A stretch of 64,000 nucleotides of DNA from Turneriella sp. (GCA_965279515.1 CBDIID010000003.1:3712001-3776000); one strand, 5' to 3'. Shown: positions 22,366 through 60,911, counted from the first letter of the stretch. The notes: generated by a model from the sequence alone, not told the origin. Translations and numbers: made by a program.

Positions 22366-22778
22366 CATCTTAATGGCGGCCAACGTGGATTTTACGCTGA
22401 CGTTTTTTGACGCTTGTGTCATTTATTCAATCTGTAAAGCCGATTTGCGTCAAAAAATGTGGTCGTAGCGGCTCGCGGCGACGCGCGAAAACACACCTCC
22501 CGGTGTGCGCGTCGTCCGCGATCTTTGCCGCGGAGACCCGAGCACGCGAGGAGCTACTGCACCGCAGCGGCGCAGCGCGTAAAATTTGTTGTCTGAAGTA
22601 ATTGCGCCTGTGAGCCCGGGCAAGGAGGCCCGGGCGAATAAAGGATAAGAGATTTTTCCATAAGAGGCCATCGGTTATCTTAACTTGCTACTTTTTGAAG
22701 TTAAACAGACTTTACACCTCGGATATCGTAGTTTTTGATGATTCTCTCGGTATAATTTCTTAGATAAGAATTGAATCC

Positions 22779-23255
22779 ATGGAAATTCCGGTTTTTCTGC
22801 CACTACCGAAAGGCATCACAGGTTTTTCGAACGCAGGCGAGCCTTTCGTAGGCTCTTTGGATAACAAATTCGTAAAATCCCTTGCCTTCTCCATAGATTA
22901 CTCCCAGCATTATAAGCTCTTTGATTTCAAGATGCCTCAGATCAGTGCTAATTATTTCAGGTTAACAATAGAGGATGGTCGGACAAATGATGTTTTCTCA
23001 ATTCTTATCAATGCTCACTATCCTTTTTATGCAGCTGTTACCAAGGAAAGTCAATGGATGAACTTGGTATTTATTGAAGCGCCAACTGCGATTCAAAATC
23101 TTTTCGCACCTCATTTTCAGTATCTTAGTCCCAAAGATTTGGGTCAAATTGTGCAGCCTGAACAGCTTATTTTATTAGGGGAATCAGAGCTGCAGCAAAT
23201 TACCAGTTGGAAGTCGGAACGCATTGGCGACATTGTTTTTAATGGATATGATTAA
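22779..23255 (+). CDS. Hypothetical cassette protein
   Basis: 158-aa ORF filling a cassette. Confidence 0.7.
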   Translation: MEIPVFLPLPKGITGFSNAGEPFVGSLDNKFVKSLAFSIDYSQHYKLFDFKMPQISANYFRLTIEDGRTNDVFSILINAHYPFYAAVTKESQWMNLVFIEAPTAIQNLFAPHFQYLSPKDLGQIVQPEQLILLGESELQQITSWKSERIGDIVFNGYD

Positions 23256-23530
23256 TCGGCCAATGCCGGTCATAGCGTCGGCATGGATGCCGACGGGATA
23301 CAAAGGCGCAATTATTTCAGACAACGTGGAAAATACCCGAATTGCGCCCCCGCGGGTGTAAAGTGTAAATAATCACGGCTTTATGTGACTTTCGCGGGAG
23401 CGCATTTGCCCGAAGCGCCTCGCGGCAAAGCACAGAACAAGCGTCCCGCTTGTGCTTTGTCCGCGATCTTTGGCGCGCAGGGCCGAGCACGCGAGCCAAC
23501 GAAGTGCTCGCGGCGCAGCGGGTATTTTTT

Positions 23531-23724
23531 GTTAGCCGCCGTTACCGGATTCGCGCGGCTGGCGAGCAACCCGAAGGTCAGCGAGATACTGTAGTTCGAT
23601 ATTATTAGTAACCGAGGAGTTGTCGCCAGGATCAAAGGCGTAAGCAGCGAAATCTGGTTGTACTCTCTGATAACAAATCCTCTTTTTCTCCCCTTCGGGC
23701 GCGAAGGAGGTAATGGTGGCTAAC
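23531..23724. repeat. Gene-less cassette, copy 1
   Basis: GTTAGCCGCCGTTACC...GGTAATGGTGGCTAAC, ~194 bp, seven near-identical copies. Confidence 0.85.
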
Positions 23725-23927
23725 GTGGAAAATACCCGAATTGCGCCCGCGCGGGTGTAAAGTGTAAATAATCACGGTTTTATGCGACTTTCGTGGGAGC
23801 GCATTTGCCCGTAGCGCCTCGCGAGCCCGCCAATGCAGGCCCACTGGCCTGCGGGCGTAGCGATCTTCGGCGCGTAGGGCCGAGCACGCGACCCAGCGTA
23901 GCGGTCGCGGCGCAGCGGGTATTTTTT

Positions 23928-24121
23928 GTTAGCCGCCGTTACCGGATTCGCGCGGCTGGCGAACAACCCGAAGGTCAGCTATATACTGTATTTCGATCTT
24001 ATTAGTCACCGAGGAGTTGTCGCCAGGATCAAAGGCGTAAGCAGCGAAATCTGGCTGTATTTTCTGATAAAAAATCCTCTTTTTCTCCCCTTCGGGCGCG
24101 AAGGAGGTAATGGTGGCTAAC
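23928..24121. repeat. Gene-less cassette, copy 2
   Basis: Near-identical to 23531-23724. Confidence 0.85.
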
Positions 24122-24545
24122 GTGGATTTTACGCTGACGTTTTTTGACGCTTGTGTCTTTTATTCATTCTGTAAAGCCGATTTGCGTCAAAAAATGTGGT
24201 CGTAGCGGCTCGCGGCGGCGCGCGAAAACACACCTCCCGGTGTGCGCGTCGTCCGCGATCTTTGCCGCGCAGACCCGAGCACGCGAGGAGCTACGGCACC
24301 GCAGCGGCGCAGCGCGTAAAATTTGTTGTCTGACGTAGTTGCGCCTGTGAGCCCGGCATGGAGGCCGGGCGACTGCAGAAGAAGGCTGCCCAAAAAAATT
24401 CTGTTTGTCCCATGAAGAACAGGATTCACGCCTGAGACGGACAGTTGCTTCATTAGTTAAACGCGGCGCCAATTTCTTGGATGCTAAATGAACTAGTATC
24501 TCACCGCTTTCGGAAATATGTCATGCCGTTTTTTTGGCATAGGGA

Positions 24546-25085
24546 ATGGCAGTAATTCGTACAGTAAGGGCCATGGAAAGTAGAGTTAGAGTATTCTACA
24601 TCCGAAAAATGGCGATGAGGACATTTTTTATATATAGCCTCATCATTGCCTCGCGGCAAATCAGCGCTACTGGGGAGGGGATCGCTGGTATTACAACCGT
24701 TAATGCCGGTATAGAATTTCACACAGGCAAGTTAGGTCCGGTACCAACGGTCGGTCTGCTGGCGGGTTTCTACTCAATTGTCAGCGCGCACGTACATGCA
24801 AATTTATCCTACCGCCCCGCTGACGAAACTTGGCATACACGAGGTGGGTTTGGATTCGGCATTTTGAATTTCTTACTAAATCTGGACCTGACGTACCAAG
24901 CCGGTAATCAATCCTCCGCCGGATTTCTCTTTGGGGGATCCCTTTTTTGGGGGCTTCAGAGATTACATGATTTGCAAACTTTAGTCGAGGTGTTTTATGG
25001 CTATCAAACTAATTTTGCGGCAAGTACCGAGAATAGCTTGATCGGCGGTTTAAAAATTCATCTGAACCTTGGAAAGAAAATTTGA
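24546..25085 (+). CDS. Hypothetical beta-barrel-like exported protein
   Basis: 179-aa ORF with alternating hydrophobic strands. Start uncertain. Confidence 0.5.
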   Translation: MAVIRTVRAMESRVRVFYIRKMAMRTFFIYSLIIASRQISATGEGIAGITTVNAGIEFHTGKLGPVPTVGLLAGFYSIVSAHVHANLSYRPADETWHTRGGFGFGILNFLLNLDLTYQAGNQSSAGFLFGGSLFWGLQRLHDLQTLVEVFYGYQTNFAASTENSLIGGLKIHLNLGKKI

Positions 25086-25198
25086 TAACCATCCCGTGGG
25101 TTGATAATAGTTTCAACTAAACCGTGGCGAATAGCAATTTCTTAGATGTCAAAATTGATCTTTCGTGCACCTAGCAGCGTCTAATACAAAACAACACT

Positions 25199-25456
25199 AT
25201 GCGAAAATTCATAACGCCGCTATGTCTCATCTGTAGTATCGCCTTACTCGGCGACCTTGCTCACGCAAAACAAAGCAAGGGTGGATTGTGGGCTGGGCCT
25301 GAGACCTTACCGCCGGATCCTAAAAGGAAAAAGCCCGGAGAAGAATGCAAAGCCTCCGATGAATGCCAGCTCCATCATGAATGCAAGCAACAAGGCGATA
25401 AGGGTGTCTGCACCCCACCGCCGCCCTCAAGAATTCCACCCGGTGCCGTAACGTAG
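25199..25456 (+). CDS. Small secreted Cys-rich protein
   Basis: Signal peptide followed by GEECKASDECQLHHEC...GVC disulfide-rich motif. Confidence 0.65.
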   Translation: MRKFITPLCLICSIALLGDLAHAKQSKGGLWAGPETLPPDPKRKKPGEECKASDECQLHHECKQQGDKGVCTPPPPSRIPPGAVT

Positions 25457-26236
25457 CCCGCCGGGCAGCGCGGCCCGGATATTCGCGATAGCATCGCCGG
25501 GATTCTCAAAAAACGTGCGCGTCACGCCATGGATTCGGGTATTGAGGCAAGTAGCGAAGCTATAAAAAACTGCTTCGAAAGCGTTTCTTTGTATGACATG
25601 CTGCCGACCCGGATTTATCACCGGGCCCGCGATGACGCTTGTTTCGGGCTGAAACAGTTTTTTTCTGCGCCGCCTACCGGTTTTGGGCGAAGGTTTCAAA
25701 AGCAGTTCTCTAACTTGCGGTTTCTGCCACCTGATTACGGCGGGTACGCGGGCAGGTTAGCAGACAAGCAGACCTTTCAGGTCTATCTGCGTTCGGTTGG
25801 AATGAATACAGCCCTTTAAAGCCATAAATATCCATAAAGAGTCGTTTTTGCCCATGAAAACAGGATTTACGCCTGAAAAGGTCCGTAGCCTAATCGTCGA
25901 AATGAGTATCAATTTCTTAGATACTTGGTCGCATTTAGTAGCTGGCGCCCGCATGGACGCGGGCGGGAAAAAACAGCGCAACTATGTCAGACAACGTGGA
26001 ATTTACACGAGGTCGATGGTGCGTCGCACAATAAAATTAGGCTTACTTGAAAAGCCGAGTATTAAGCACCATCGATCTGCCGAAGACCGCTCGTTGCGCC
26101 TGACCAAACAAACGTCCCGTTTGTCAGGCGTCAACGATCTTTGCGGTCGAGGCCGAGCACGCGAGGAGCCACGGCACCGCAGCGAGCGCAGCGTGTAAGT
26201 TTTGTTGTGCGACGTTGCCCCGCTGGAAAAAAATGC

Positions 26237-28502: not shown

Positions 28503-29837
28503 GGTACAATATCAGAACATCGGTAACGAAAAGTCATCACGACATCGGTAACAGTTCTGCCTCAGGCTTTGCCGTGGTTTCCTCCTGATTTGGTGTAAAC
28601 AAATAATTGTTCCGATCGATGTAGCCCAATAGCAGGCTACCGAAGTAGACGTCGATGCGCATGTCGGCGATAAACCGGAGCCCGATCGGGTAGCCGTTAA
28701 AAGAATTGCCGATAAATATCCGGTGCTGCTTGTAGTTGGTGTAACCGCGGTCATTTACGATGCGTACGATGCAATCCTCAGGGTAGGCGGGTAGTACGTC
28801 GCCAGTATACGGAATTTCAGATGGTAGGTAGAACTCTGATGGCGTCCTCATGCCCAGGGCTTCATGCGGTCGCACATTGTTGAAGTCTTCGCGCCACTGA
28901 TCAAACGAAATCTGGTGAAGCTTTAGATCACCGCGAATGCGCCCCTGCAGTTCCGTGCGGATGTCTCTGTGCATACGCTCATGGCCACCATTCTGGGCTG
29001 GCTTTCCCGGATCAATGCGGTCCAGAGAAATTCCCAAGGACAGCCACCAGACTGACAATTTTGTCAGGCCAAAGAGGCCCCACGATGATGCGAAAGGAGT
29101 TCCGTTGTCAGAGCGAATAATTTCCGGCAGACCATAGCGTTTGAAGAGTCTGGCAAAGTGTTGTTTTACATTGGAAATATTGCCCTTTTCCAGTATCTGT
29201 ATCGACAGGATGTACTTACTGTACTCATCGCGAACTGTCAGAGGTTCGCATTTCTCTGCATGTGCAGTATACCACCACCCCTTGAAATCAACCGTCCATA
29301 TGTGATTGGGATGCGTCGCCTTTTCGCGAAGCATCAGCCTCTCTCCGGTTCTGCGGCGCTTCTTTCCTCTTGGCCTTGTCAGACCAGAGCGCGCCAGAAG
29401 GCGATCGACTGTAGGCACTGAAATATCGCCTTTGCGCTCGGGGTAAAGCCTGCAGAAGACCGCATAGATCTTCTTGGCTCCCCAGCGAGGCCTGTTATTC
29501 TTTATGCGAATAATGTCGCAGATTGTTTCTTCGTCAGTGCGGTTCGGATTGCCTCCTGGTTTTCGTGACAACTCCGCCAATCCAGCTAAGCCTTTTTCCA
29601 GAAACCTTGCCTTCCACTTGTACCCTGTCTTGGTGCTGATGCCAAACTCGCGGCACAGCTCTGTGAAACTCTCTACGCCCTCCAGGGCGCGAAAGACAAA
29701 AGATCTTTTCTCTTCCATTTTGGTAACCTCTTTCCACGGCATTTGAGCCCCCTGCCGAAGGCAGGCAAAAGCTCTTTGCGAAGCAAAGTGTTACCGATGT
29801 CTTGATAGAAATGTGTTACCTATGTCGTGATAGTACC
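28503..29837 (-). mobile_element. IS481-family element, copy 1 (1335 bp)
   Basis: Imperfect terminal IRs GGTAC...ACAT(C)GGTAAC, duplicated target TAAG. Confidence 0.92.
28537..29742 (-). CDS. IS481-family DDE transposase
   Basis: MPWKE N-terminus, HTH (ELCREFGISTKTGYKW), WTVDFKG, IRSDNG, QNGGHERMHR, RPHEALG. Confidence 0.93.
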   Translation of the reverse strand: MPWKEVTKMEEKRSFVFRALEGVESFTELCREFGISTKTGYKWKARFLEKGLAGLAELSRKPGGNPNRTDEETICDIIRIKNNRPRWGAKKIYAVFCRLYPERKGDISVPTVDRLLARSGLTRPRGKKRRRTGERLMLREKATHPNHIWTVDFKGWWYTAHAEKCEPLTVRDEYSKYILSIQILEKGNISNVKQHFARLFKRYGLPEIIRSDNGTPFASSWGLFGLTKLSVWWLSLGISLDRIDPGKPAQNGGHERMHRDIRTELQGRIRGDLKLHQISFDQWREDFNNVRPHEALGMRTPSEFYLPSEIPYTGDVLPAYPEDCIVRIVNDRGYTNYKQHRIFIGNSFNGYPIGLRFIADMRIDVYFGSLLLGYIDRNNYLFTPNQEETTAKPEAELLPMS

Positions 29838-30153
29838 TAAGGCTATTTCGCCCAACGTGGATTTTAGGCTGACGTTTTTTGACGCTTGTGTCATTTATTC
29901 AATCTGTAAAGCCGATTTGCGTCAAAAAATGTGGTCGTAGCGGCTCGCGGCGACGCGCGAAAACACACCTCCCGGTGTGCGCGTCGTCCGCGATCTTTGT
30001 CGCGGAGACCCGAGCACGCGAGGAGCTACGGCACCGCAGCGAGCGCAGCGCGTAAAATTTGTTGTCTGAAGTAATTGCGCCTGTGAGCGCGGCTAGGAGG
30101 GCCGCGCGAATTCTGAGTTTAATTGCCTATTACTGGTCATTTCGCGTCGGCAT

Positions 30154-31107
30154 CTACCGGTGTGAGTCTAAGGCGGCGCGGGCTGACTTCTCTTGGTTTG
30201 CGATGTAATCCATAGGATGAAATTCATGGGGCGCCATGGCTTTTTCCTGCATGATCAGCCGATACCCATAGCAGAGCATAGGCGAGTCACCATCGACCAG
30301 ACCGATAGGTCCTTCTGTTTTCAGAGCTTTATTTTCCAGGCTGTAGATAATATCGGTTTCACTGCGTGCTTCGCGTATGATAAGTTTAGCTTCATTGCGC
30401 TTCCAAGTACACGACCTATCAACGCGGTTTCCATTATAGGTCAAGAGGGAAACGAGCCGGCATCTGCCATTTCTTTCTATATTCAGATAACGGTGTTCGG
30501 TTGAATTGCTCTCATCTAAATAAAGGCCAATAAATCCGTCGGTAAACGTCTGAAGGTATCGCGATCTGAGCCTGTCGCCCAGCTCTGCGGATATTGGAAA
30601 ATCTTCAAATGAATCACCTGCCTGTCGGAAGAATTTGATACCCGAGAGAGCCGTATCGGACCATTTCGCGCCTTTATAGACGGAAACGATTCTCAAGCTG
30701 ACCTGTTTACCCTTCAGAGTATCTTTCAAATCTATATTTTGTCTGCCCGCGGTGTCCTTAAGCGTATAGACAGTCTCGCTGCCACCTTCCGCAGAGAATC
30801 CGATTTCTTTAACGCGATTATTGAGCGGGAAAAATTTCGCATCGGAGTAACCATTCCAGACAGCTATCCGATGAATTTTTGCTTTCTTATCAAATAAAAA
30901 GGTGACGGTCTCGCCGATGCCGTCGTCGGCCTTGCCTTCAACCCAACTTGCTTGGGCGCCTTCACGAAGCAGCCACTCTGCACGGTATTTACCTGTCTCA
31001 GGTTCATGCTCGCTTGAGGCTTGTATTCCTGTGACTAAGGGAGGCATCTTTTCACCACAGCTAGGCAAGAAGACGAAAAGCATAAAAAAGGAACCGAATC
31101 GTAGCAT
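30154..31107 (-). CDS. Lipoprotein with discoidin/NADase-type glycan-binding-like domain
   Basis: Lipobox LPSC, SWVEG..DDGIGE, NGY...NNRVK, SVYKG.KWSDTALS. Confidence 0.65.
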   Translation of the reverse strand: MLRFGSFFMLFVFLPSCGEKMPPLVTGIQASSEHEPETGKYRAEWLLREGAQASWVEGKADDGIGETVTFLFDKKAKIHRIAVWNGYSDAKFFPLNNRVKEIGFSAEGGSETVYTLKDTAGRQNIDLKDTLKGKQVSLRIVSVYKGAKWSDTALSGIKFFRQAGDSFEDFPISAELGDRLRSRYLQTFTDGFIGLYLDESNSTEHRYLNIERNGRCRLVSLLTYNGNRVDRSCTWKRNEAKLIIREARSETDIIYSLENKALKTEGPIGLVDGDSPMLCYGYRLIMQEKAMAPHEFHPMDYIANQEKSARAALDSHR

Positions 31108-31677
31108 AGTCACCCTCCAATCCAACGGGTGACCCATTACCCAAGGAGATAATCAGTCAAACATTAAACTGAACCGCCACATTATTAAATATGGCTTTTG
31201 AAGCGGGTAACTACCCTTAAACTGGTCATTGTGTCACGATAGCTTCACCGCGCCGACAGGAGGTCGGCGGATATCAAAGGCGCAATTATTTCAGACAACG
31301 CGGAATTTACCTGAGGTCGATAGTGCGTCGCGTAATAAATGCAGTCTTCACTCGAAAGCTGCGTTTTGATGCACTATCGATCTGCCGCAGGTCGCCTCGT
31401 TGCGCCCGACCAAACAAACGTCCTGTTTGTCGGGCGTCAACGACTCTTAAGCGACCGGAGGCCGAGGACACGAGCCAACGAAGTGCTCGCGCCCGCAGCA
31501 GGTAAATTTTGTTCTCTGACGTAGTTGCACTTATGAGCCCGGGCATGGAGGGCCGGGCGACCATTACTAAAATGCTGTTGTTCAAAAGACTAAAAAAAGC
31601 TTTTTTCAAGATTCTGGGTTAAATTAGCTAAGGATGAAAGTCCTTGACGCATCTAATTATTCATTCCAGAGGTCTAT

Positions 31678-31917
31678 ATGAGTATCAATGAATATGTGGT
31701 TATTGACCCTGATATCTGTAACGGCAAACCGACCGTAGCCGGTACTCGAATAACTGTCCAAACGGTTCTTGAATTCTTGGCCGTAGGGGAATCGATTGAG
31801 ACCATCGTAAAGAATTATCCTAGGCTTACGACCGTTAGTATTCAAGCATGTATCCAATTTGCCGCAGACATGGCGGGACACGAATACAGCATGCATAAAA
31901 TTGCACACGCTGGATGA
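31678..31917 (+). CDS. DUF433 antitoxin
   Basis: IDPDICNGKPTVAGTRI motif. Confidence 0.9.
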   Translation: MSINEYVVIDPDICNGKPTVAGTRITVQTVLEFLAVGESIETIVKNYPRLTTVSIQACIQFAADMAGHEYSMHKIAHAG

Positions 31918-32252
31918 AAATACTTATCGATGAAAATCTACCCGAAGACATTTCTTGCTGGAAGTCTGATGATTTTATCCATGCCAAGGCATTAGGTGCA
32001 AAAGTCAGCGATGGCGAAATTTGGAATTTTGCCCTTCAAAATAACCTGATAATAGTCAGTAAGGATACAGATTTCTCAAACCGAATCTTGGTCTCAAATC
32101 CACCGCCTCGCGTAATTCATATGCGGATTGGCAATATGCGTTTTCAAGTATTGGATGAATTTATTACACAAAATTGGAAAAAAATTCTGCAACTGTCTCA
32201 AAAACATAAACTCGTGAATGTCTACAGAGATTCGATAGAAGGTATCAACTGA
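31914..32252 (+). CDS. DUF5615 PIN-like toxin
   Basis: LIDENLP...SDGEIW...VSKDTDF, overlapping the antitoxin stop. Confidence 0.88.
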   Translation: MKILIDENLPEDISCWKSDDFIHAKALGAKVSDGEIWNFALQNNLIIVSKDTDFSNRILVSNPPPRVIHMRIGNMRFQVLDEFITQNWKKILQLSQKHKLVNVYRDSIEGIN

Positions 32253-32541
32253 CTTATTTGCCTTAGATGCGCCGCCATGGATGGCGGCGGAGCACTTAGT
32301 GCAACTATGTCAGAGAACGTGGATTTTACGCTGACGTTTTTTGACGCTTGTGTCATTTATTCAATCTGTAAAGCCGATTTGCGTCAAAAAATGTGGTCGT
32401 AGCGGCTCGCGGCGACGCGCGAAAACACACCTCCCGGTGTGCGCGTCGTCCGCGATCTTTGCCGCGGAGACCCGAGCACGCGACCCAACGAAGTGGTCGC
32501 GGCGCAGCGCGTAAAATTTGTTGGCTGAAGTGCCAGGTTCG

Positions 32542-50453: not shown

Positions 50454-50724
50454 TACTTTTGATCGAATTATGTCGAATAAAGATCGGAAAAAGCAATTTG
50501 ACAGTGGCTATACTGACTTTTTGCTTTCTGAATTTCTGCATGAGGCTATGGCCGAAAGACATCTGTCAGTGAGGAAGCTTTCGGAAAAAGCTCATGTGTC
50601 ACCAGCCATGATTCAGAATCTGAGATCTGGTAAAACGCAGAATATTAGCCTTAAGAAATTGAGTGCTATTTCCAATGTCTTAGGTTATGAAATAAGGCTT
50701 CAGAAGCTCGCAACGCGAGCATAA
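50428..50724 (+). CDS. XRE-family HTH antitoxin (HigA-like)
   Basis: LSVRKLSEKAHVSPAMIQNLRSG HTH, downstream of the toxin. Confidence 0.85.
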   Translation: MKNTMKKTSTFDRIMSNKDRKKQFDSGYTDFLLSEFLHEAMAERHLSVRKLSEKAHVSPAMIQNLRSGKTQNISLKKLSAISNVLGYEIRLQKLATRA

Positions 50725-51174
50725 TCATATCGATTTATTGCCGACAACGCGGGTTTTACCTTGACGTTTTTGCTTGTGGCGTCTTCGTCACAAGCAAAAA
50801 TGTGCCCGGAGCGCCTGCCCGAGCCCGCCAATGCAGGCCCACTGGCCGGCGGGCGCAGGGCATCTTTGGCGCGGAGTGGCCGAGCACGCGACCCAACGGA
50901 GTGGTCGCGCGCGCAGCAGGTAAAACTTGTTGTCTGAAGTAATTGCGCCTGTGAGCGCGGCCAGGAGGGCCGCGCGAAATCCAATCTCAGCTACCCATAA
51001 TTTGTCATTTTGTTGCCTCAAGAACAGGCTTTACGCCTGAGAAATCCGGGGCTCCGGAGGTCTTTGTCGGGAATAGATTCTTATGTAGTAAAGGACGCGG
51101 CAGCAGCACAGTTAAGATCGACGAACCTGCCACAATTATGAAAGTATCCACAGATTTCTCACTGGAGGCAATTA

Positions 51175-51597
51175 ATGCAAAAAATATTTCTGATAGGTTT
51201 ATTACAATTGAGCTTTGGAGCCGGATGCGTTCTATTTGCCGTTGAGAAAAAAATAAAAGTGCAGAACGGGGAAATCGAAATTCTTGGAGAAAAAATTCCG
51301 GTATATGGCAAGGCCGAAGAAGTTACAGTGACCTATAACGACGGTGACGGGGCCCGATCTCTACAAGTTGAGTATTACTTTCCAGGAAAGTCGACAGAAA
51401 AGGTTCTCAAGGACGTGGCTGCCTTCTACACCGGCAAAAGTATTTTTGGCACGAAAGTTGGAAAATTCAAGAAGAACAAATCGAACGGCGGGGCATATAA
51501 TTTTGAAAATTGCTCAAATAAGCCTGAGCTGTTGATCGTGATCTACGCCAATGAAACCCCTGGCCATGTGTACATTGGCGACATGTGTTTGCCTTGA
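51175..51597 (+). CDS. Putative lipoprotein
   Basis: RBS GGAGG, lipobox-like GAGC. Confidence 0.65.
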   Translation: MQKIFLIGLLQLSFGAGCVLFAVEKKIKVQNGEIEILGEKIPVYGKAEEVTVTYNDGDGARSLQVEYYFPGKSTEKVLKDVAAFYTGKSIFGTKVGKFKKNKSNGGAYNFENCSNKPELLIVIYANETPGHVYIGDMCLP

Positions 51598-52398
51598 GGT
51601 CAACATAGGTCTGGCACAGCTGATTGTTGCCGGGCGCGGGGGACTATTCTGCGCATCCGTAAGCACCATTCGTACATTCTGGCTTCGCCAGCGCCCTCAG
51701 GTATGATATTGCAAATTCTCAATCCGTTTGAGAGTTGAAATCGTAGCCCTGCGATCTTGCCCCCCGGACCAAATGATACAAAGATACTTTGCACGTTCGA
51801 TGCACCTGTCATTTCGCAGGCCTTTCCCAAGACAATATAGCCCTTTAATGGGTTAACTGCCCATAAGGCGTCATTGTGTCTCCTGATAACAGGCTCTACA
51901 CCTGAGAGATTATGGGGCCTGTAGGTCCCAGGATAAGTAATTTCTTATTCACTTAACTTCAAGCTCGTTGCCGCGCCGACACGAAGTCGGCGCGTAACAA
52001 AGGCGCAATTATTTCAGACAACGTGGATTTTACGCTGACGTTTTTTGACGCTTGTGTCATTTATTCAATCTGTAAAGCCGAATTGCGTCAAAAAATGTGG
52101 TCGTAGCGGCTCGCGGCGACGCGCGAAAACACACCTCCCGGTGTGCGCGTCGTCCGCGATCTTTGCCGCGAAGACCCGAGCACGCGAGGAGCTACGGCAC
52201 CGCAGCGGCGCAGCGCGTAAAATTTGTTGTCTGAGGTAATTGCGCCTGCGAGCACGGGCAAGGAGGCCCGTGCGACAAGAATCAGATGCTCATAAGTGTA
52301 TTGCCTGCTGGCGAATAAGATTCGCCAAAAAAAATGAAGAAAGTTATTACTCTGGACAGCCTCTCGCCAGAATAAAACTTTAAGGTCGCCAATTTCAG

Positions 52399-52833
52399 AT
52401 GCGCATCGCTTTAAATTTACAGTTAAATAAATATGCTCAAGGGCTTATTGATATATCTGCATTTCTATCAAAGATTAGCGGCTATGGTCCCGCTGAAAAG
52501 AGGGCTTTTATTAACGACTTAGTTGATTTAATAATTCAATCGAAACCCGAAGGTACTAACTTGCGAGAAATTCAAGAGATATTAGCTTTGAAAAAAACTC
52601 CAGCCATGGTCATTCTGCTTCAGGGTATTACGAAAGCAAATCTACAGAAGATTCTTGAATTTAATGATCAGGAGATGCAGGCTTCAATCAATACCTTGTT
52701 GGTTGTTTATAAAGATAGCTATATGCGCCGCTATTTAGCAGAGAAAAATTCCCCCGATAAGTGGTGGTATTGGGATTTAAGGGATGAGAAAAGGGAGGCT
52801 AGTATAAAGCGTCAGTTTTCTGATTATTTATGA
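52399..52833 (+). CDS. Hypothetical protein (DUF5958-like)
   Basis: LNKYAQGL...QSKP...KWWYWDL pattern. Confidence 0.55.
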   Translation: MRIALNLQLNKYAQGLIDISAFLSKISGYGPAEKRAFINDLVDLIIQSKPEGTNLREIQEILALKKTPAMVILLQGITKANLQKILEFNDQEMQASINTLLVVYKDSYMRRYLAEKNSPDKWWYWDLRDEKREASIKRQFSDYL

Positions 52834-52958
52834 TGAAGACTTGTATTTAAGGAATCAAATTTTGATTTCAGCCAGCCACAGGCGAGACAGAGATGACGGT
52901 TTGTCTTAAATCTTTATGCAATGCGTCGGCATGGATGCCGACGAAGCACAAAGGCGCA

Positions 52959-54293
52959 GGTTCAATATCAGAACATCGGTAACGAAAAGTCATCACGACA
53001 TCGGTAACAGTTCTGCCTCAGGCTTTGCCGTGGTTTCCTCCTGATTTGGTGTAAACAAATAATTGTTCCGATCGATGTAGCCCAATAGCAGGCTACCGAA
53101 GTAGACGTCGATGCGCATGTCGGCGATAAACCGGAGCCCGATCGGGTAGCCGTTAAAAGAATTGCCGATAAATATCCGGTGCTGCTTGTAGTTGGTGTAA
53201 CCGCGGTCATTTACGATGCGTACGATGCAATCCTCAGGGTAGGCGGGTAGTACGTCGCCAGTATACGGAATTTCAGATGGTAGGTAGAACTCTGATGGCG
53301 TCCTCATGCCCAGGGCTTCATGCGGTCGCACATTGTTGAAGTCTTCGCGCCACTGATCAAACGAAATCTGGTGAAGCTTTAGATCACCGCGAATGCGCCC
53401 CTGCAGTTCCGTGCGGATGTCTCTGTGCATACGCTCATGGCCACCATTCTGGGCTGGCTTTCCCGGATCAATGCGGTCCAGAGAAATTCCCAAGGACAGC
53501 CACCAGACTGACAATTTTGTCAGGCCAAAGAGTCCCCACGATGATGCGAAAGGAGTTCCGTTGTCAGAGCGAATAATTTCCGGCAGACCATAGCGTTTGA
53601 AGAGTCTGGCAAAGTGTTGTTTTACATTGGAAATATTGCCCTTTTCCAGTATCTGTATCGACAGGATGTACTTACTGTACTCATCGCGAACTGTCAGAGG
53701 TTCGCATTTCTCTGCATGTGCAGTATACCACCACCCCTTGAAATCAACCGTCCATATGTGATTGGGATGCGTCGCCTTTTCGCGAAGCATCAGCCTCTCT
53801 CCGGTTCTGCGGCGCTTCTTTCCTCTTGGCCTTGTCAGACCAGAGCGCGCCAGAAGGCGATCGACTGTAGGCACTGAAATATCGCCTTTGCGCTCGGGGT
53901 AAAGCCTGCAGAAGACCGCATAGATCTTCTTGGCTCCCCAGCGAGGCCTGTTATTCTTTATGCGAATAATGTCGCAGATTGTTTCTTCGTCAGTGCGGTT
54001 CGGATTGCCTCCTGGTTTTCGTGACAACTCCGCCAATCCAGCTAAGCCTTTTTCCAGAAACCTTGCCTTCCACTTGTACCCTGTCTTGGTGCTGATACCA
54101 AACTCGCGGCACAGCTCTGTGAAACTCTCTACGCCCTCCAGGGCGCGAAAGACAAAAGATCTTTTCTCTTCCATTTTGGTAACCTCTTTCCACGGCATTT
54201 GAGCCCCCTGCCGAAGGCAGGCAAAAGCTCTTTGCGAAGCAAAGTGTTACCGATGTCTTGATAGAAATGTGTTACCTATGTCGTGATAGTACC
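52959..54293 (-). mobile_element. IS481-family element, copy 3 (1335 bp)
   Basis: Near-identical to the other copies; one end reads GGTTC; duplicated target CGCA. Confidence 0.92.
52993..54198 (-). CDS. IS481-family DDE transposase
   Basis: Protein identical to the other two copies. Confidence 0.93.
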   Translation of the reverse strand: MPWKEVTKMEEKRSFVFRALEGVESFTELCREFGISTKTGYKWKARFLEKGLAGLAELSRKPGGNPNRTDEETICDIIRIKNNRPRWGAKKIYAVFCRLYPERKGDISVPTVDRLLARSGLTRPRGKKRRRTGERLMLREKATHPNHIWTVDFKGWWYTAHAEKCEPLTVRDEYSKYILSIQILEKGNISNVKQHFARLFKRYGLPEIIRSDNGTPFASSWGLFGLTKLSVWWLSLGISLDRIDPGKPAQNGGHERMHRDIRTELQGRIRGDLKLHQISFDQWREDFNNVRPHEALGMRTPSEFYLPSEIPYTGDVLPAYPEDCIVRIVNDRGYTNYKQHRIFIGNSFNGYPIGLRFIADMRIDVYFGSLLLGYIDRNNYLFTPNQEETTAKPEAELLPMS

Positions 54294-54637
54294 CGCAATT
54301 ATCTCAGACAACGCGGAATTTACCTGACGTTTGGTGACACATGTGTCATTATTTTAATCAGGAAAGCCGTCTTGTGTCACCAAATGTGCCCGGAGCGCCT
54401 CGCGGCAAAGCACAAAACAAGCGTCCCGCTTGTGCTTTGTCCGCGATCTCCGGCGCGTAGGGCCGAGCACGCGAGGAGCCACGGCACCGCAGCGAGCGCA
54501 GCAGGTAAATTTTGTTGTCTGAAGTAATTGCGCCTGAGAGCACGGGCATGGAGGCCCGTGCGACAAAGATTAAATTGTCATAACAGCGGAATCTCTACTT
54601 TTCGCGGACAAAGATTTTGCAGGAAATTAGAGGTATT

Positions 54638-57600
54638 CTACGCTTTGGGACTATCTAACGTTACCTTGCAGAGAACAGCAAGCTGAGATACTAATTCAAC
54701 GTTTTCTTCATTTCCTTGCACTTTTGTCAGGAGTGACTGTAGGGGCTTCCTGATTACATCAGGAAAATGCTCCTGAGGCTTGAAAGCGTTATTCGCATCA
54801 GGTGAGAGTAAAAAAATCATCCATTTAATGTGTTCGAAGTCTTCCTTTTTAATGAAATCTTCGATGGCTTCCTGTATGGTTTTTACTTCTTTGAAAAGCT
54901 CCTCTTTGACAAAATAATTCTTATTGATATCAAGAAATGCCGCTGGAACTCTAAATGCGTTATCGCGCAATATATTTGTCATACTGGATGCGTAATGTTT
55001 CTGGAAACTGGAGCCCATGGCGTCTATAATTCCTGTCCAATTACTTTCCGTCCATTTGCCCCACTTGGGAGCTTTGAATACTCCCTGCATGTATTTCGTA
55101 ATTGCATCAAGATAGTTATTTTCAAGGCAAAAATCTGGTTTTTTCTTTTTTACGAGCGTAGGAATGGCGCGCAGATATGACTCTTCCTCAAAAGTCTTAA
55201 GCCATTCGGCTTGAGTAATATTACTCAAATCTCTGGCTATCTTTGCTAGTAGTGTTGGGTTGTTTGTTTGATGTGCTACGTAGTAGAATACCCCAGGAAA
55301 GGCTGAACATGTTCGCGTTTCTATTAGAGCTTGATTTTCTAAGTCACCAAACTCTATGAGTAATGATGCAACTTTCTCGCGCAGATTTTGTGTTGTGACG
55401 GAAAGATAAGACTGGTAACGATCAAATGCATTGTCGATCCGGAAGATTTCTGCTGTTTCCAATTCATTTAGCACCGCTTCGATAATTACGCCAGCCTTTT
55501 TACAAGCCGTTTCGCTTGCTATGTCCCATGGGAGGGACCAGAGTTGGTATCTCTTAATTTCCAAGAGGAGTTTAGTCGTTTCTGTATCATCTTGACTCGA
55601 CCAAATCCCCTTAATATCAGATAATCCCTGGGAACTGAGAGGGAAGTTGCCGGCAGGGTCAGAAATTTGAGTCGTTTGAATTTTCGACTTGAAAACGAAA
55701 GCATAGAAAATCGCGCCATGAACGAGGTCCGCTGCCTTCCGTTGAGTCAGAAGATTATAATAGGCCGGATTTTTCGCAATGGCAATTGCGTCCTCTGAAG
55801 GGCCTTCAGGCCGAATGCACAGCTGATTAATAACCTGAAATACTTGATTCTGCTGTGCTGGATTGCTGGAATTTTGCCAAACAATATAGGACTGGCAGGC
55901 CTTCAAGATTGGTGACCAATCGGCCGCGATGCCAGATTTTTGTACATAAAAGATCACATCCAATACCGGCGGGAATGGCTGACCTTGTTTTATGGCTGCC
56001 GCAAGTTCGGTAAAAAGGGTATTTGATGGCTGGATGAGTTTCGGAAAAACAATCTCCTCTGGAGTAATATGTCTTGTCCATAACAAAAGACCAGCGAGAT
56101 TTAATTCCTGAATTCTTTGCGACTTTGGAACTTTGGATTTCGCCTGTAGTAATTGCAAGTTTTCCTGAAGGCAATCGGCCATGAACGTCAGATTGCCGCC
56201 TTGTTGCGGGTCTAAATTAAAGCGCAAAGTCCTGATCAAGTGCTCATACATTTCGACTAAGAATTTTTCCTCCTGTCCGCAGATACGCAACAGAGCCAAA
56301 TAGGACTCCCTGTTTTCACTTGATAAGGGAGTCAGAGTGACCCGATCCAGAATTAGAGAGCTCACGTTTTTGATAAAAATATTCAATGTAAATTGCTTCT
56401 GTGCTGCAAAAAGCTCTAATGGTTTCGCGGCTGCCAAGGCGTATTCTAGAGATATTTCCGTGTGCTCAAAATGATAGTTCAAGATACCATGGAATGTCGA
56501 ACCGTGAATATTGGACAGTTCTAGGAGTCTTTCTTGGTTGCTATTGTTTAAGGCATCCGAAATCTCGGGTTGAAGAAGCAATTGCTCACCTTTTGCCGGA
56601 GAAACGCCGAAAACCAAGCCGGCAAGATCCTTGAAGTAACCTTCTGACAATGCTAATTGGTGCTTGGGATTTACCAAGCGCCTTTCAACGAGGCTGGCAC
56701 GGATTTTTTGGGTATCCCAAAAATCCAATTCCCGCCAGCAGGCGTAATAAATAATACTGGAAATATGCACCTGATCGCCCCATAGAGATGCTAGAAAACC
56801 AATTTGGTTAATGACGTTTTTAATTTCTCTAGGGGTCGGCATGTCCCCAATGCTATTCCGGGTTGTTCGGATGATCTTTGTTACCAGCTCAATTTCCTCA
56901 TCACTCCAGTTAATCAGGCTGTCTTTTGCAAGTTCTTTGGTGAATTTCTCCCAACCAGAGAAAATTGGTTTTGGCACATCGAGGCGCAGTTGAAAACACT
57001 TATCGAAGAATGACTTTGAAATTTCCTGCTGAACCCTTGATTTCGATCGCTCGTTCCACTGTTTTTCTAAGCCATTTTTGTCGTAGGGAACAATGATCCA
57101 AATCTTATCAAAGAGATCTTTTCTGCGAACGGCATCGCCTCGGACTTGCAGAAATGTTTGGAGGGTGGACCAAACTTTGATAAAGTCTTCCTTATCGATT
57201 CTATCCAGATTATCTACGACAAGAACCATTTTCTTTAGTTCAGGGTTGCTCAGCACGATACTTAAAATTTGCTCGAAATATACTTCAAATTCAACCGATG
57301 ATCTCTCATCGCTCTCAGAAACCTCCTGTGAAACTTTCTGTACAGAGTCATTCTGGAGAAAGCGCCAGTTTCTCTTGTGGAATATTTTTCGTGCTTTTTT
57401 GCCAAGCACGACCTTTCCAAATACCTTAAAAATACCGCGTTGGATAACATGGAACAAGAATTTCAAGGCCAAGATAATGACTGGTCCCGATATTGTGAGC
57501 CAACCCAGAATCGTTAAAATCAGTATATTTCGATCAGAAACGTATTCGTGTTTTGAAAGATATACCATACAAGCAGTCCCGATGGGTATAAAAAACGCGG

Positions 57601-58045
57601 CTGTCGCTACAGCCTTGCCCAACATTGTTGTTCCTTGGAATGTCTTAATGCGAGCGCTTTTCTTCCGATTCCCGACTATTCGGTCCAGACGTTTTAACTG
57701 GAGGGTCTCCTTATCGGATACGTAAGGTTTTACGCTGGCGATAATCGTTTCCAAGAATATCCGTCTTAGGGGATCTCCCTCGTGAGCCCAAGCATCGAAT
57801 TGTATGACAGGGATCTTTAGATTTGCATCCTTGATTTTTTTTGATAGAATAGAAATAACTGTTGATTTTCCAGAGCCCCATGAGCCTTCTAGGCCAATAG
57901 AGATACTTGGCGATTCCGATGTAACCAGCGTAAAAAGCGCAGCGGCCAATTTTTCATGTGTTTTGTCTTCAAAGGCATCGCTTTCTACAGTCCGTTCAGG
58001 CAGAATCTTGAATCGATATTTCGAAGTGGCTGTGAGGCTTTCCAT
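54638..58045 (-). CDS. KAP-family P-loop NTPase with long helical C-terminal extension
   Basis: IGLEGSWGSGKS Walker A, FDAWAH, two TM helices inserted, VVDNLDRI Walker B, FFDKCFQ, TPREIK. Confidence 0.88.
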   Translation of the reverse strand: MESLTATSKYRFKILPERTVESDAFEDKTHEKLAAALFTLVTSESPSISIGLEGSWGSGKSTVISILSKKIKDANLKIPVIQFDAWAHEGDPLRRIFLETIIASVKPYVSDKETLQLKRLDRIVGNRKKSARIKTFQGTTMLGKAVATAAFFIPIGTACMVYLSKHEYVSDRNILILTILGWLTISGPVIILALKFLFHVIQRGIFKVFGKVVLGKKARKIFHKRNWRFLQNDSVQKVSQEVSESDERSSVEFEVYFEQILSIVLSNPELKKMVLVVDNLDRIDKEDFIKVWSTLQTFLQVRGDAVRRKDLFDKIWIIVPYDKNGLEKQWNERSKSRVQQEISKSFFDKCFQLRLDVPKPIFSGWEKFTKELAKDSLINWSDEEIELVTKIIRTTRNSIGDMPTPREIKNVINQIGFLASLWGDQVHISSIIYYACWRELDFWDTQKIRASLVERRLVNPKHQLALSEGYFKDLAGLVFGVSPAKGEQLLLQPEISDALNNSNQERLLELSNIHGSTFHGILNYHFEHTEISLEYALAAAKPLELFAAQKQFTLNIFIKNVSSLILDRVTLTPLSSENRESYLALLRICGQEEKFLVEMYEHLIRTLRFNLDPQQGGNLTFMADCLQENLQLLQAKSKVPKSQRIQELNLAGLLLWTRHITPEEIVFPKLIQPSNTLFTELAAAIKQGQPFPPVLDVIFYVQKSGIAADWSPILKACQSYIVWQNSSNPAQQNQVFQVINQLCIRPEGPSEDAIAIAKNPAYYNLLTQRKAADLVHGAIFYAFVFKSKIQTTQISDPAGNFPLSSQGLSDIKGIWSSQDDTETTKLLLEIKRYQLWSLPWDIASETACKKAGVIIEAVLNELETAEIFRIDNAFDRYQSYLSVTTQNLREKVASLLIEFGDLENQALIETRTCSAFPGVFYYVAHQTNNPTLLAKIARDLSNITQAEWLKTFEEESYLRAIPTLVKKKKPDFCLENNYLDAITKYMQGVFKAPKWGKWTESNWTGIIDAMGSSFQKHYASSMTNILRDNAFRVPAAFLDINKNYFVKEELFKEVKTIQEAIEDFIKKEDFEHIKWMIFLLSPDANNAFKPQEHFPDVIRKPLQSLLTKVQGNEENVELVSQLAVLCKVTLDSPKA

Positions 58046-58840
58046 AATGTGCTGATCTATTTCACGTTATGCTGACATTCCGTAGTTATTTTTTTTTAAT
58101 TTGGAAAGCATATAGCTTGCCCTACGCCATGTCAAATAATAGACTTATGCATAAATAAAAGCTATTGGCAAATTCGGGGACTCGCGCTTGCTTGAAGTTT
58201 GCTGATTGCGCCATTGCAGATTGGTTATTACGCGTATAAGACGCCTGGCTGTAAAGCCAGCTTAGCGCACGTTGAAGCTATTAGGACTGGTTTTTTACGC
58301 TCGTGATTTCTTAGGGCTGGCCATTTTATTAGCCTGAGAATTACATTCTGTAGACGTGCGATTAGGGACCAAGCACGCATTTTTCAGGAGCATTATCCTG
58401 CATATCCGGAGTCTCAACTTGGTCAATGCGCCGACACGAGGTCGGCGAATAACAGAGGCGCAATTATTTCAGACAACGTGGATTTTACGCTGACGTTTTT
58501 TGACGCTTGTGTCATTTATTCAATCTGTAAAGCCGATTTGCGTCAAAAAATGTGGTCGTAGCGGCTCGCGGCGACGCGCGAAAACACACCTCCCGGTGTG
58601 CGCGTCGTCCGCGATCTTTGCCGCGGAGACCCGAGCACGCGAGGAGCTACGGCACCGCAGCGGCGCAGCGCGTAAAATTTGTTCTCTGCCGTAACCGCTT
58701 CGGATAGCCCGGTCATGGATGGCCGGGCGTAAACAGGTCGATTGAGGATCGATCAATTCCATAACGCTTTAAATTAAGGTTAAAAGGATGTTTACGCTAT
58801 TTCGGTAAAGAATCCTTAGGTTACGCGGAGTTAAATTTTC

Positions 58841-59374
58841 ATGGTAAAAATTTGCATTTATTTATTTCCATTTTTGCTGCTCAACTGTACGAGTGCATAC
58901 AAACACGTAAAATCCGCCGATTCGGCAATGGTCCGGTTTATTATACCTGAAACTGAAAAGGATGTTACATCAGTCGGTGTTTATATTAACAGTGACTCAA
59001 GCTGTAGCGGCGCTACCAAGGTTCGACAGCTTGGGGGAGTTCAACTTGGGGGCATGGCTTCAAGTGATGCGGAGATTGGTATGCCAAAAGACCCGAAGCA
59101 AAAGTATTCAGGTAACAGTTATGCCGAAATTTCTGTAGTGCCTGCCCAACCACTCTATTTTACTCTGGCGGGAATGTATTTTGGAAAAAAATGCAAACTC
59201 ACAATGTTTTTTGTCCCCAAATCCAATACTAATTATGAAGTTCGCTACACAACTGAAGGGAGAAGGTGTAACATACTCATCGATGAGATTGAGCTAAAGA
59301 ACGCGCAGCTTATTTATCGAGAAGAGGTTTCTGCGAAGCGCAATCCAAAAACCTGTAGTTTCTATTGGAACTAA
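58841..59374 (+). CDS. Putative lipoprotein
   Basis: Spirochete-type lipobox LLLNC. Confidence 0.7.
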   Translation: MVKICIYLFPFLLLNCTSAYKHVKSADSAMVRFIIPETEKDVTSVGVYINSDSSCSGATKVRQLGGVQLGGMASSDAEIGMPKDPKQKYSGNSYAEISVVPAQPLYFTLAGMYFGKKCKLTMFFVPKSNTNYEVRYTTEGRRCNILIDEIELKNAQLIYREEVSAKRNPKTCSFYWN

Positions 59375-59838
59375 TTTGGGTTTTCTTGGCATAAAGTGCA
59401 ATTAAATGTCTGCGCCCACACGATGTGGGCGAGACCGAATGAGAACTATTGCGGTTATGGCAGAGAACGCGGAATTTACCTGACGTTTGGTGACACTTGT
59501 GTCATTAATTCAATCAGAAAAGCCGCCTTGTGTCACCAAATGTGCCCGGAGCGCCTCGCGGCAAAGCACAAAACAAGCGTCCCGCTTGTGCTTTGTCCGC
59601 GATCTTCTGGCGCGTAGGGCCGAGCACGCGAGGAGCCACGGCACCGCAGCGAGCGCAGCAGGTAAATTTTGTTGTCTGAAGTGATTGCGCCTGTGAGCCC
59701 GGGCAAGGAAGCCCGGGCGACAAGTTTAGGAACTGTGACGTCAGAAATTAGTTGGCTTAGCGACCTATTATTTAACTTTATGATTGCCAATTTATAATTG
59801 CTTTAATACTCTAGTCAAATCGGTATCACAGGTAGGAA

Positions 59839-60558
59839 ATGAAAATTGATAATGCTGGTTTTGTGAATCGGGGACTCGTGACTTTGCGTGGCTTTCTCGA
59901 CCAAAAGAAAGTCGCGGCTGCCCGCGAATCGATTTTCGCAGAGCTGGAAAGATTGAAAATTAAAGTTAATGGAAAAATTGTGTCTTCTAAAGTACAGAAT
60001 TTACCTATCTTCCAACAAACGGTTCGGCTCGGTCAGCTGATAAGGGTTGGCGATCAGATTGGCCGTCTGTTTTCGGAGGATTTATTAAGTGTAGCAGATT
60101 CTTTGGCTGGATCAACATTGCGGGCCGCAACTGCTGAGCCACAGGTTTTGCTTTCGTTGCCTCATAAAGCAGATTGGTCACTGGCCAATTTGAACTGGCA
60201 TTTGGATTTGGCACCATTAAAAATTGATCAAATTCTAGGCATCCAGGCCTTTATCTTGATTAACGACGTGCACCCCCACGGGGGCGCGACCCTCGCTTTA
60301 GCAGGATCTCACAAGCTACATTATATATATTTCAACCACAATGCTCATGCGATTCTCAGAGAACATTCCGACTTCTATGTCAAACCGGAAAAATTTTCGC
60401 AGGCCCAAGTTGTGTGCGGAACCCATGTGCAAATCGTAGAAATGTGCGGACGAGCAGGTGACGTGTTTCTTATGGATCTACGTGTTCTACATTCACCTTC
60501 GATAAACTCGAATCGCGAAATTAGAATGATGGCGACTAATCGTTTTCTAAAATCGTAA
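59839..60558 (+). CDS. Phytanoyl-CoA dioxygenase (PhyH)-family Fe/2OG oxygenase
   Basis: WHLD, GGATLALAGSH, AGDVFLMDLRVLHS, R. Confidence 0.85.
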   Translation: MKIDNAGFVNRGLVTLRGFLDQKKVAAARESIFAELERLKIKVNGKIVSSKVQNLPIFQQTVRLGQLIRVGDQIGRLFSEDLLSVADSLAGSTLRAATAEPQVLLSLPHKADWSLANLNWHLDLAPLKIDQILGIQAFILINDVHPHGGATLALAGSHKLHYIYFNHNAHAILREHSDFYVKPEKFSQAQVVCGTHVQIVEMCGRAGDVFLMDLRVLHSPSINSNREIRMMATNRFLKS

Positions 60559-60911
60559 TGTAGAACTCTGCGGCAGGAAAATGGACTTGCGAAGGAAAAG
60601 AAGCCGCCTCTACTTCTAATACTGAGTGAACAAAGCATTAATATCAAGATATGGAATAGCGCCGACACGGAAGTCGGCGGATGACAAAGGCGCAATCATT
60701 TCAGACAACGTGGAAAATACCCGAATTGCGCCCCCGCGGGTGTAAAGTGCAAATAAACACGGTTTATGCGACTTTCGTGGGAGCGCATTTGCCCGTAGCG
60801 CCTCGCGAGCCCGCCAATGCAGGCCCATTGGCCGGCGGGCGCAGCGATCTTCGGCGCGTAGGGCCGAGCACGCGAGCCAACGAAGTGCTCGCGGCGCAGC
60901 GGGTATTTTTT

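Follow-up and report, generated by a model that had tools for sequence, protein, structure and literature searches.

How do gene cassettes with unrelated contents come to be held in one and the same frame? The question is raised by a 64,000-nt stretch of DNA from the spirochaete Turneriella sp. (GCA_965279515.1, CBDIID010000003.1:3712001–3776000), which we refer to as the window; plain positions are counted from its first letter, and genome coordinates are given as C3, the window being C3:3712001–3776000. An earlier note on this DNA had read the stretch as a cassette array, which is what we found, and had proposed that new cassettes arise when DNA is swapped in between the two inner hairpins of a pre-existing frame, here called the chassis. 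Cassette genesis is an open question, and a class of cassettes with a fixed frame and gene fragments at some of its junctions is a concrete place to look for the loading of cargo. Our analysis favours a reading in which the chassis belongs to the recombination site itself. The window probably contains the first 41 kb of a sedentary integron-like array, in which the moving unit is made of a structured repeat (Rep) and one cassette, exchange takes place at AAC↓G (the arrow marks the exchange point), and the chassis represents the start (S) and end (E) halves of the site.

A long structured repeat lies between the cassettes

We observed that the ~200-bp gaps between the cassettes listed in the earlier note are filled by Rep, a structured repeat of ~210 nt (205–218). 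The window holds 36 full copies, one copy with an internal deletion and one that is cut by the window's end (63810–64000). A 12-nt core of Rep was matched 35 times in the window as against 0.55 expected, exclusively on the + strand and from 22538 up to the window's end. A profile search of the whole genome gave 147 matches; 126 of them are full-length, lie on the + strand and form two arrays, C3:90771–170676 and C3:3734382–3805401, and all but one of these (125/126) start with AAC and end with GTT. The cassettes of the genome number more than 120 and span ~151 kb, i.e. 3% of the genome, and 219 sites were counted in a relative.

Rep together with its flanks folds at −103.6 kcal/mol on the + strand (z = −9.95) and at −98.8 kcal/mol on the − strand. 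The consensus derived from 66 copies of two species has 38 pairs, 24 of which show compensatory changes. Its outer part consists of the closing pair AAC/GTT and a bulge of 2–3 nt that is present on the 5′ side only; the inner stem, GGAWWWTAC paired with GTAWWWTT, alternates between AU, UA and GC pairs, and the interior is branched. Two of the pairs are G.T in 66/66 copies on the + strand, where the other strand would have C.A mismatches. This resembles the layout of an attC site, with an outer R pair, unpaired bases, an inner L pair and a variable interior.

A fold of this kind could also belong to an RNA gene, structured or guide-like, that is transcribed from the + strand, in which case the array would act via RNA and not via folded DNA. 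The strong covariation and the wobble pairs, which are G.U-compatible on the + strand only, fit with an RNA. However, searches against Rfam 15 returned no match at the gathering threshold in the whole window and none at E ≤ 1 in the segment 50850–52450, and no promoter signal was found above chance in 46300–54700. Moreover, homology between cassette copies breaks at the Rep border, the arrays are syntenic with a tyrosine recombinase gene and an attI-like site, and the strand bearing the wobbles is the very one that folds in integrons. We consider an RNA role for Rep very unlikely.

Cassette arms pair within the cassette, and duplicated cassettes reveal the mobile unit

Each cassette is bounded by an inverted repeat formed by its first and last ~18 nt, and this repeat begins exactly at the Rep border. 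This property, which the earlier note did not cover, is not confined to the eight cassettes it had listed; nearly every cassette of the array has its own start and end inverted repeat. A strict test for it was passed by 99 of the 125 cassettes, and in 99/99 a G at position 11 of the start arm is opposed, on the + strand, by a T in the end arm. When the end arm was paired instead with the start of the next cassette across Rep, only 7/124 passed. Correspondingly, contiguous pairing reached a median of 18 bp inside cassettes (n = 126), as compared with 4 bp in the array context (n = 124). Positions 1–3, 8, 11 and 12 of the arms are fixed or nearly so and the remainder is variable, giving 70 distinct 18-mers among 90 cassettes. 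The same rule was followed by 46/47 cassettes of the related genome G002 and by 97/158 intervals of another relative, G011, many of the latter spanning diverged repeats. Orthologous cassettes in different species retain their own stem through compensatory changes in both arms.

Next, we compared cassettes that are duplicated in the genome. The Reps to the left of such copies have identities of 0.95–1.0, whereas those to the right have identities of 0.66–0.93, and in the 7 pairs that were inspected homology starts and stops at AAC↓G(T). The mobile unit is therefore Rep plus start arm, cargo and end arm; as in integrons, each of these 7 pairs consists of cargo with one site and a fixed exchange point. 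Joints in assembled contigs from sequencing runs also fall at Rep and frame borders, but since an assembly graph collapses repeats at precisely those borders, they speak neither for nor against excision.

On the mechanism that we propose, the + strand, equivalent to the canonical bottom strand, would fold and the recombinase would exchange strands at AAC↓G, the left edge of Rep. In an excised circle E, Rep and S would adjoin and zip into one long stem, and the chassis would correspond, for one class of cassettes, to the S and E halves of this site. The two halves of the frame are then not separate ends; in the excised circular form they would belong to one continuous site, E arm–Rep–S arm.

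The candidate recombinase lacks the integron integrase insert

We used the NCBIfam model TIGR02249, with its cut-off of 265 bits, as the test for an integron integrase (IntI). The best six-frame match in the genome scored 93 bits, and the cut-off was passed in none of 21 genomes, i.e. that of the window and 20 relatives, of which 12 are further members of the genus. There is also no recombinase or integrase at the borders of either array in the window's genome. This genome has four tyrosine recombinases, and the array-linked type is a protein of 366 aa encoded at C3:2926096–2927193. Its orthologues adjoin arrays in seven relatives (G002, G003, G005, G007, G011, G012 and G013), always at the same array end and with the gene directed away from the array. 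A second atypical tyrosine recombinase, of 311 aa (C3:2781195–2782130), is distinct from the array-linked one and from the two Xer-like genes.

The 366-aa frame is free of stops and its catalytic domain appears intact, with an unbroken PF00589 match of 126 bits that spans 162 residues; an alignment to VchIntIA (2a3v) was inspected by eye for the catalytic residues. This alignment comes in two pieces and skips chain residues 182–245, which are faced by 23 residues of the query, so that the insert specific to IntI is absent. The best family model was of the XerA type, at 196 bits and below its cut-off of 220. An N-terminal extension of 95–140 aa has no Pfam family. Close relatives come only from assemblies named Turneriella, Leptospiraceae or Spirochaetes. 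Distant ones (40–45% identity) are proteins of the candidate phyla radiation, which a source names 'site-specific tyrosine recombinase/integron integrase'.

Between the last cassette and the recombinase gene lies an attI-like sequence, AAC↓GTYTATTCCCTG, which starts at the exchange point and is conserved in G002, G011, G005 and G007; in these four genomes it stands next to the 5′ end of the recombinase gene, which is oriented away from the array, as is the case for attI. It is found 150–250 bp upstream of the gene in G002 and G011 and farther away in G005 and G007, and G013 has a diverged form. Both arrays of the window's genome terminate in attI-like AAC↓GTCTATT..., with the recombinase gene elsewhere. 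From the orientation of the gene in the relatives, the + strand of the window corresponds to the canonical bottom strand of integrons, and in integrons the bottom strand is the one that folds. The wobbles on the + strand and this orientation hint, indirectly, that the + strand may be the folded substrate here too.

A fixed frame surrounds unrelated cargo

The motif GTTGTCTGAAGTAATTGCGCC, allowing up to 3 mismatches, was matched 16 times in the window as against 0.00 expected from 100 shuffles, and its partner AGGCGCAATTATTTCAGACAAC, at the same stringency, 17 times, with none expected from the shuffles. At the coordinates of the eight framed cassettes, start and end motifs pair exactly as had been described, and the variant frames at 24325, 31511 and 49007 were confirmed. 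The inner hairpins exist and covary: 10 start-side and 18 end-side stems occur among 28 frames, and pairing is always kept. For the unit 52226–54312 the frame stood, but its end arm is not intact. It is split by an insertion sequence (IS) of 1335 bp, with the hairpin and the first arm bases at 52924–52958 and the remaining arm at 54294–54312.

The cargo is indeed unrelated and in either orientation, as it comprises differing Pfam families or none and has open reading frames (ORFs) on both strands. All-against-all blastn joined the eight cassettes only via their first ≤170 nt, their last ≤140 nt and the IS.

Of ~125 cassettes in the genome, 16 are strict and 28 are loose members (TGTGAG plus hairpin) of the chassis class. 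Among the strict members, 13 are in the window's array, several of them adjacent, and 3 in the other. The design has a 21–22-nt arm, a fixed 22-bp stem, 3–4 additional pairs and, on either side, a GC-rich hairpin whose loop contains GGA. All strict members start with the arm, TGTGA, hairpin and GCGA, and finish with a hairpin followed by 8 nt and the arm. Their conservation falls off at the inner bases of the hairpins, in agreement with the claim that unrelated cargo is enclosed by a fixed frame. Across the genome, 57 of 63 GC hairpins with GGA loops on the + strand, and 0 of 5 on the − strand, are located in the arrays. The strict arm, as a 21-mer, was likewise present in 12 cassettes of G011 and in 3 of G002. 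Chassis-type cassettes in the window's array are longer than the others (median 1131 versus 651 nt). The class stands out because other cassettes mostly have private stems, which co-vary with the cargo across species.

About half of the chassis members have a 126-nt repeat, Y, just inside the start hairpin, and in some a second, directly oriented Y stands immediately inward of the end hairpin. Copies of Y are 70–85% alike between members. Y also occurs outside the arrays, for example at C3:3244005–3244107 (−), upstream of a lipoprotein-like ORF, and in tandem and dispersed form at a separate locus of G011 where the Reps are on the opposite strand. A tandem triplicate of Y is present in a relative (L169:1652–2031). 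Y might be a promoter or leader, or a patch of homology.

Frames of this kind invite comparison with transposons. The cassettes could be elements with 22-bp terminal inverted repeats (TIRs), or similar to miniature inverted-repeat transposable elements (MITEs), or single-strand transposons with hairpin ends, moved by an HUH (Y1) enzyme, that had inserted among the repeats of an array. In favour of this, the terminal inverted repeats show no mismatch, both hairpins are of equal polarity on one strand, like the ends of IS200/IS605, and the genome has one Y1 transposase gene. Against this, nearly every cassette has its own inverted repeat starting exactly at the Rep border, and copies travel with the left Rep. 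No target duplications accompany the cassettes and their flanks are always Rep borders, unlike those of TIR transposons or MITEs. The palindromes flanking the Y1 gene differ in sequence, in contrast to IS200/IS605 or REP/RAYT elements (repetitive extragenic palindromes and their associated tyrosine transposases), no TnpB was found in a search, and the sole transposase of the arrays belongs to an IS481-type element with ends of its own. Altogether, a transposon origin of the frames is extremely improbable. The Y1 gene itself (C3:2616152–2616472) is flanked by its own 36–38-nt palindromes in the style of REP-associated transposases, which are unrelated to the frame hairpins.

Observations that weigh against an integron-like array

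Several results weigh against the reading of the window as a sedentary integron-like array. The candidate recombinase failed the IntI test, scoring 161 bits where 265 are required, and in the window's genome its gene is 0.8 Mb from the nearest array. Canonical attC sites are 57–141 nt long; Rep is about twice the typical length, and it is branched. Its wobble pairs, all on the + strand, would suit an RNA equally. Predicted promoters and terminators in 46300–54700 numbered 11 and 11 as compared with 10.1 and 10.2 expected, an uninformative result with no signal above chance. Y was considered as a folded site and rejected, with z of −0.4 to −0.8. Recombination was not seen in the reads examined, which were assembled contigs. 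With these points taken into account, we still hold an integron-like array with a chassis built from the S and E halves of its site to be the probable explanation.

Does the frame record the birth of cassettes?

It is ordinary in sedentary integrons that unrelated cassettes share one family of sites, so the sharing of a frame is not by itself a new clue. More specific evidence came from the two largest chassis cassettes, which both hold multi-gene segments of chromosomal type. The 5.5-kb cassette at C3:3794248 ends in a fragment of a glutathione peroxidase gene (gpx; Pfam profile 1–88 of 108). This fragment is homologous to the chromosomal gene, at 83% of nucleotides, up to the beginning of Y; 96%-identical direct Y repeats stand on both sides of its 5.2 kb of cargo. 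In the 9-kb cassette at C3:3785083, the cargo opens with a MarR fragment that abuts Y on its inner side. We also compared cargo with the arrays of four other species, and matches were obtained for 0/29 chassis-type cassettes and for 11/82 of the others (Fisher p = 0.064).

If the frame came first and new DNA is swapped in between its inner hairpins, as the earlier note had it, an originally empty chassis would record the birth of cassettes. That the identity of all 16 strict members ends at the inner base of each hairpin fits with such a process, as do the unrelated cargo in both orientations, the gene fragments that end at frame junctions, the Y repeats around the 5.2 kb cargo, the greater length of the chassis cassettes and the skewed cargo matches. 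However, an empty frame was not encountered among the chassis-type cassettes of five genomes, the smallest cassette being 591 nt. The frames are old, because the hairpins and Y have diverged between members and the 21-mer is conserved across species. The only boundary of cargo homology that could be mapped at the nucleotide level, that of gpx, lies not at a hairpin but ~135 nt inside the end hairpin, at Y, and the missing part of gpx was found neither in the genome nor in the arrays of four relatives. Chassis cassettes are not significantly enriched at the attI-like end (p = 0.06, 0.26, 0.25 and 0.62). The gene-fragment junctions number only two, and in a third large cassette the borders come just after the stop codons of complete genes, which speaks against loading into a frame. 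We regard the swapping of new DNA into an empty frame as possible, although doubtful.

Alternatively, gene conversion or selection may have homogenised a favoured stem and hairpin among cassettes that existed already, which says nothing of their origin. Drift is seen in the hairpins (10 and 18 stem variants) and in Y (70–85%) but not in the 22-mers, which are identical; the same 21-mer is found in other species, and 13/16 strict members sit in one array, several of them side by side. These points favour such concerted evolution. On the other hand, conversion tracts that halt exactly at the hairpin bases, on both sides and in many cassettes, are not what one would expect, and most other cassettes have held on to private stems with compensatory changes over a long divergence. 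We find concerted evolution an unlikely explanation.

A bolder version of the integron-like reading can be advanced only tentatively, and we think it rather doubtful. In this version Turneriella and its kin would have an active gene-capture system parallel to integrons, with a Xer-type enzyme devoid of the IntI insert, 210-nt single-strand sites with a three-way junction, and private 18-bp 'barcode' stems with an obligatory G.T. The chassis would be the entry vehicle that makes cassettes from arbitrary chromosomal DNA, gene fragments included. If true, the formation of new cassettes could be observed here as it happens.

Having weighed the evidence for and against a role in genesis, we take the chassis frame to be that portion of an extended recombination site which the cassette itself carries. 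The divergence of the frames, together with a stem that is conserved across species, points to selection rather than recent copying. Unrelated cargo, two junction fragments and the lack of cross-species cargo matches are compatible with turnover of cargo inside a kept frame, which is plausible but unproven. With less certainty, cargo may be exchanged or newly loaded within a kept frame, at the borders set by the hairpins or by Y. The proposal that DNA was swapped in between the inner hairpins thus fared unevenly, the junction fragments and the unrelated cargo agreeing with it and the diverged frames and the absence of an empty one disagreeing, and the cassette-genesis reading is only partly supported.

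Distribution of Rep

Rep is present in 12 of the 13 other genomes of the genus that were searched and in one sister genus, but not in the other four genera of the same family, nor in 21 genomes searched from other families. Named public records with multiple Rep copies per contig were assemblies of Turneriella, Leptospiraceae and Spirochaetes, and one labelled Flavobacteriales. In the latter, the end motif of Rep is found several times, on two contigs (records L035–L037, L046 and L047); this could be due to mis-binning or to transfer.

Contigs from wastewater metagenomes match 46289–47752 and 50681–52144 almost letter for letter, for instance a contig of 1107 nt that covers 50931–52007 with 3 differences. 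The cassettes beside those covered, and the IS, are uncovered, as would be expected if array content differs between populations; this is a weak hint, drawn from contigs only.

Outside the two arrays, loci with 1–3 Reps are dispersed on the chromosome at C3:1909101–1909306 (−), 2805276–2807814 (−), 2882644–2882877 (−) and 3059316–3060369 (−), and also at 3496552–3497420, 3631484–3634195 and 4811501–4812535. The locus at 2882.6 kb retains a Y module, an end hairpin and an end arm of the chassis type. We considered whether solo Rep loci are insertions of a frame, and rejected this for the two loci examined, which resemble small or decayed arrays.

Other features of the window

The coordinates of the features are collected in Table 1. 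In the interval between ilvD and the array (20136–22381, counted with the gene) there is just a 24-nt remnant of an IS end. Integrons of Xanthomonas are likewise located beside ilvD, but with the integrase as the neighbour there. The Rep that has lost its central hairpin region is at 36601–36762 and adjoins an IS-interrupted cassette. Among the array cargo, Pfam identified a RelB domain, as in cassettes of the toxin–antitoxin type.

Table 1. Location of the array, its cassettes and neighbouring elements in the window
Feature	Position	Strand	Remarks
Integron-like cassette array (probable)	22382–64000 (window's end)	+	Continues to C3:3805401, ~41 kb past the window
Rep unit, example (attC-like)	52020–52228	+	AAC/GTT closing pair, 2–3-nt bulge, L-box-like stem, branched interior
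ilvD (dihydroxy-acid dehydratase)	20136–21980	−	Chromosomal flank, at the array end distal to the attI-like site
Chassis cassette 1	22588–23325		S arm, TGTGA and hairpin ~22588–22638; hairpin, 8 nt and E arm ~23274–23325
Cargo ORF of chassis cassette 1	22779–23255	+	No Pfam family
Chassis cassette 2	30061–31299		ORF 30154–31137 (−), NADase_transloc F5/8-type C domain
Chassis cassette 3	38504–40129		ORF 38657–39841 (−), no Pfam family; Y 38565–38669, partial Y 40018–40054
Chassis cassette 4	46501–47189		ORF 46675–47061 (+), weak DUF7945 match; partial Y 46615–46686
Chassis cassette 5	50929–52022		ORF 51175–51597 (+); direct Y copies on both sides, 50991–51084 and 51834–51950
Chassis cassette 6	52226–54312		ORF 52399–52833 (+), DUF5958; E arm split by IS 52959–54293; end hairpin ~52926–52945
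Chassis cassette 7	54514–58477		ORF 54638–58045 (−), 1135 aa, KAP-family P-loop NTPase
Chassis cassette 8	59671–60709		ORF 59839–60558 (+), PhyH; one compensated stem change, GTGATTG / CAATCAT
Variant-frame cassette	24325–25995		GTTGTCTGACGTAGTTGCGCC with TGTGA and hairpin
Variant-frame cassette	31511–32318		GTTCTCTGACGTAGTTGCAC
Variant-frame cassette	49007–49785		GTTCTCTGACGTAGTTGTGCC; identical copy with identical left Rep at C3:3780674
IS481-family IS, 1335 bp	28503–29837	−	401-aa transposase; more copies at 36939–38273 and 52959–54293
194-bp cassette without obvious gene	23531–23724		Also 23928–24121, 34366–34559, 40335–40529, 44207–44400 and 60912–61105

The IS481-family element, whose transposase has the domains rve and LZ_Tnp_IS481, is confined to the arrays and their edges, where the genome has 7 complete copies and a partial one; those outside the window are at C3:97813, 136711, 143089 and 156640, with the partial one at 89513. 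All copies are in one orientation, and their right end, which coincides with the outer edge of the E arm, is separated by 19–20 nt from the exchange point at AAC. A short duplication was observed at one insertion. The element looks specialised on the site arm. It resembles the IS1111-attC group, which is likewise confined to arrays and inserts in a site arm at a fixed distance and orientation, but differs in having an IS481-type DDE transposase, and would be a second example of an IS specialised on the arms of recombination sites.

A further cassette, of 194 bp, has 12 full-length copies in the genome besides two into which the IS has inserted and one whose end differs, and is always preceded by the same subtype of Rep. 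An 84-aa ORF on the − strand (e.g. 23381–23635) extends from it into the preceding Rep. It may represent a gene, an RNA or an empty cassette.

Comparison with known systems

In the supplementary table of Cury et al. 2016 (PMC4889954), the entry for the type strain of Turneriella parva reads NA for clusters of attC sites lacking an integrase (CALIN), for In0 and for complete integrons. Standard integron detection drew a blank in this named species of the genus, and such pools of cassettes probably go undercounted. Full-text literature searches on integrons or attC sites in Turneriella found no such arrays, those on integrons in Leptospiraceae and broader ones found nothing that describes this system, and the terms searched in the T. 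parva genome paper led to no mention of such repeats or cassettes.

The two arrays are similar to CALINs (PMC4889954) in that no integrase is adjacent and ISs are found inside. The sites here, however, are not canonical attC sites, and a dedicated recombinase other than IntI exists. Likewise, the Xer/dif modules of Acinetobacter plasmids, as outlined in PMC7399989, have inverted half-sites that bracket genes and an enzyme of the Xer family. Here no 28-bp two-arm duplex site resembling dif was seen; the sites are folded, there is one per cassette, and the units number more than 100.

The system is also close to sedentary chromosomal integrons such as the Vibrio superintegron with its VCR (Vibrio cholerae repeat) sites. 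Both have long arrays that run in one direction with mostly single-gene cassettes, some of the toxin–antitoxin type, a species-wide family of folded sites placed at the cassette end distal to the recombinase, and an exchange point of the form ...AAC↓G / C↓GTT.... In both, each cassette begins with a stretch that can pair with the distal side of that cassette's own site, folding is more favourable for one of the two strands, and an attI-like site stands beside a recombinase gene that is directed away from the array. The present system differs from them in the recombinase, which has no IntI insert and scored 161 bits against the 265-bit cut-off, and which is unlinked from both arrays of the window's genome. 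Its sites are 205–218 nt long and branched, as opposed to 57–141 nt, and the complementarity carried by the cassettes is 18–22 bp with an obligatory G.T at position 11, as opposed to ~7 bp. In integron biology, the insert specific to IntI is held to enable the reading of folded attC sites, and in the present genome a Xer-like enzyme without it appears to serve more than 120 cassettes. These comparisons suggest an apparently undescribed, large variant of the integron design, that is, an integron-like system assembled from different parts.

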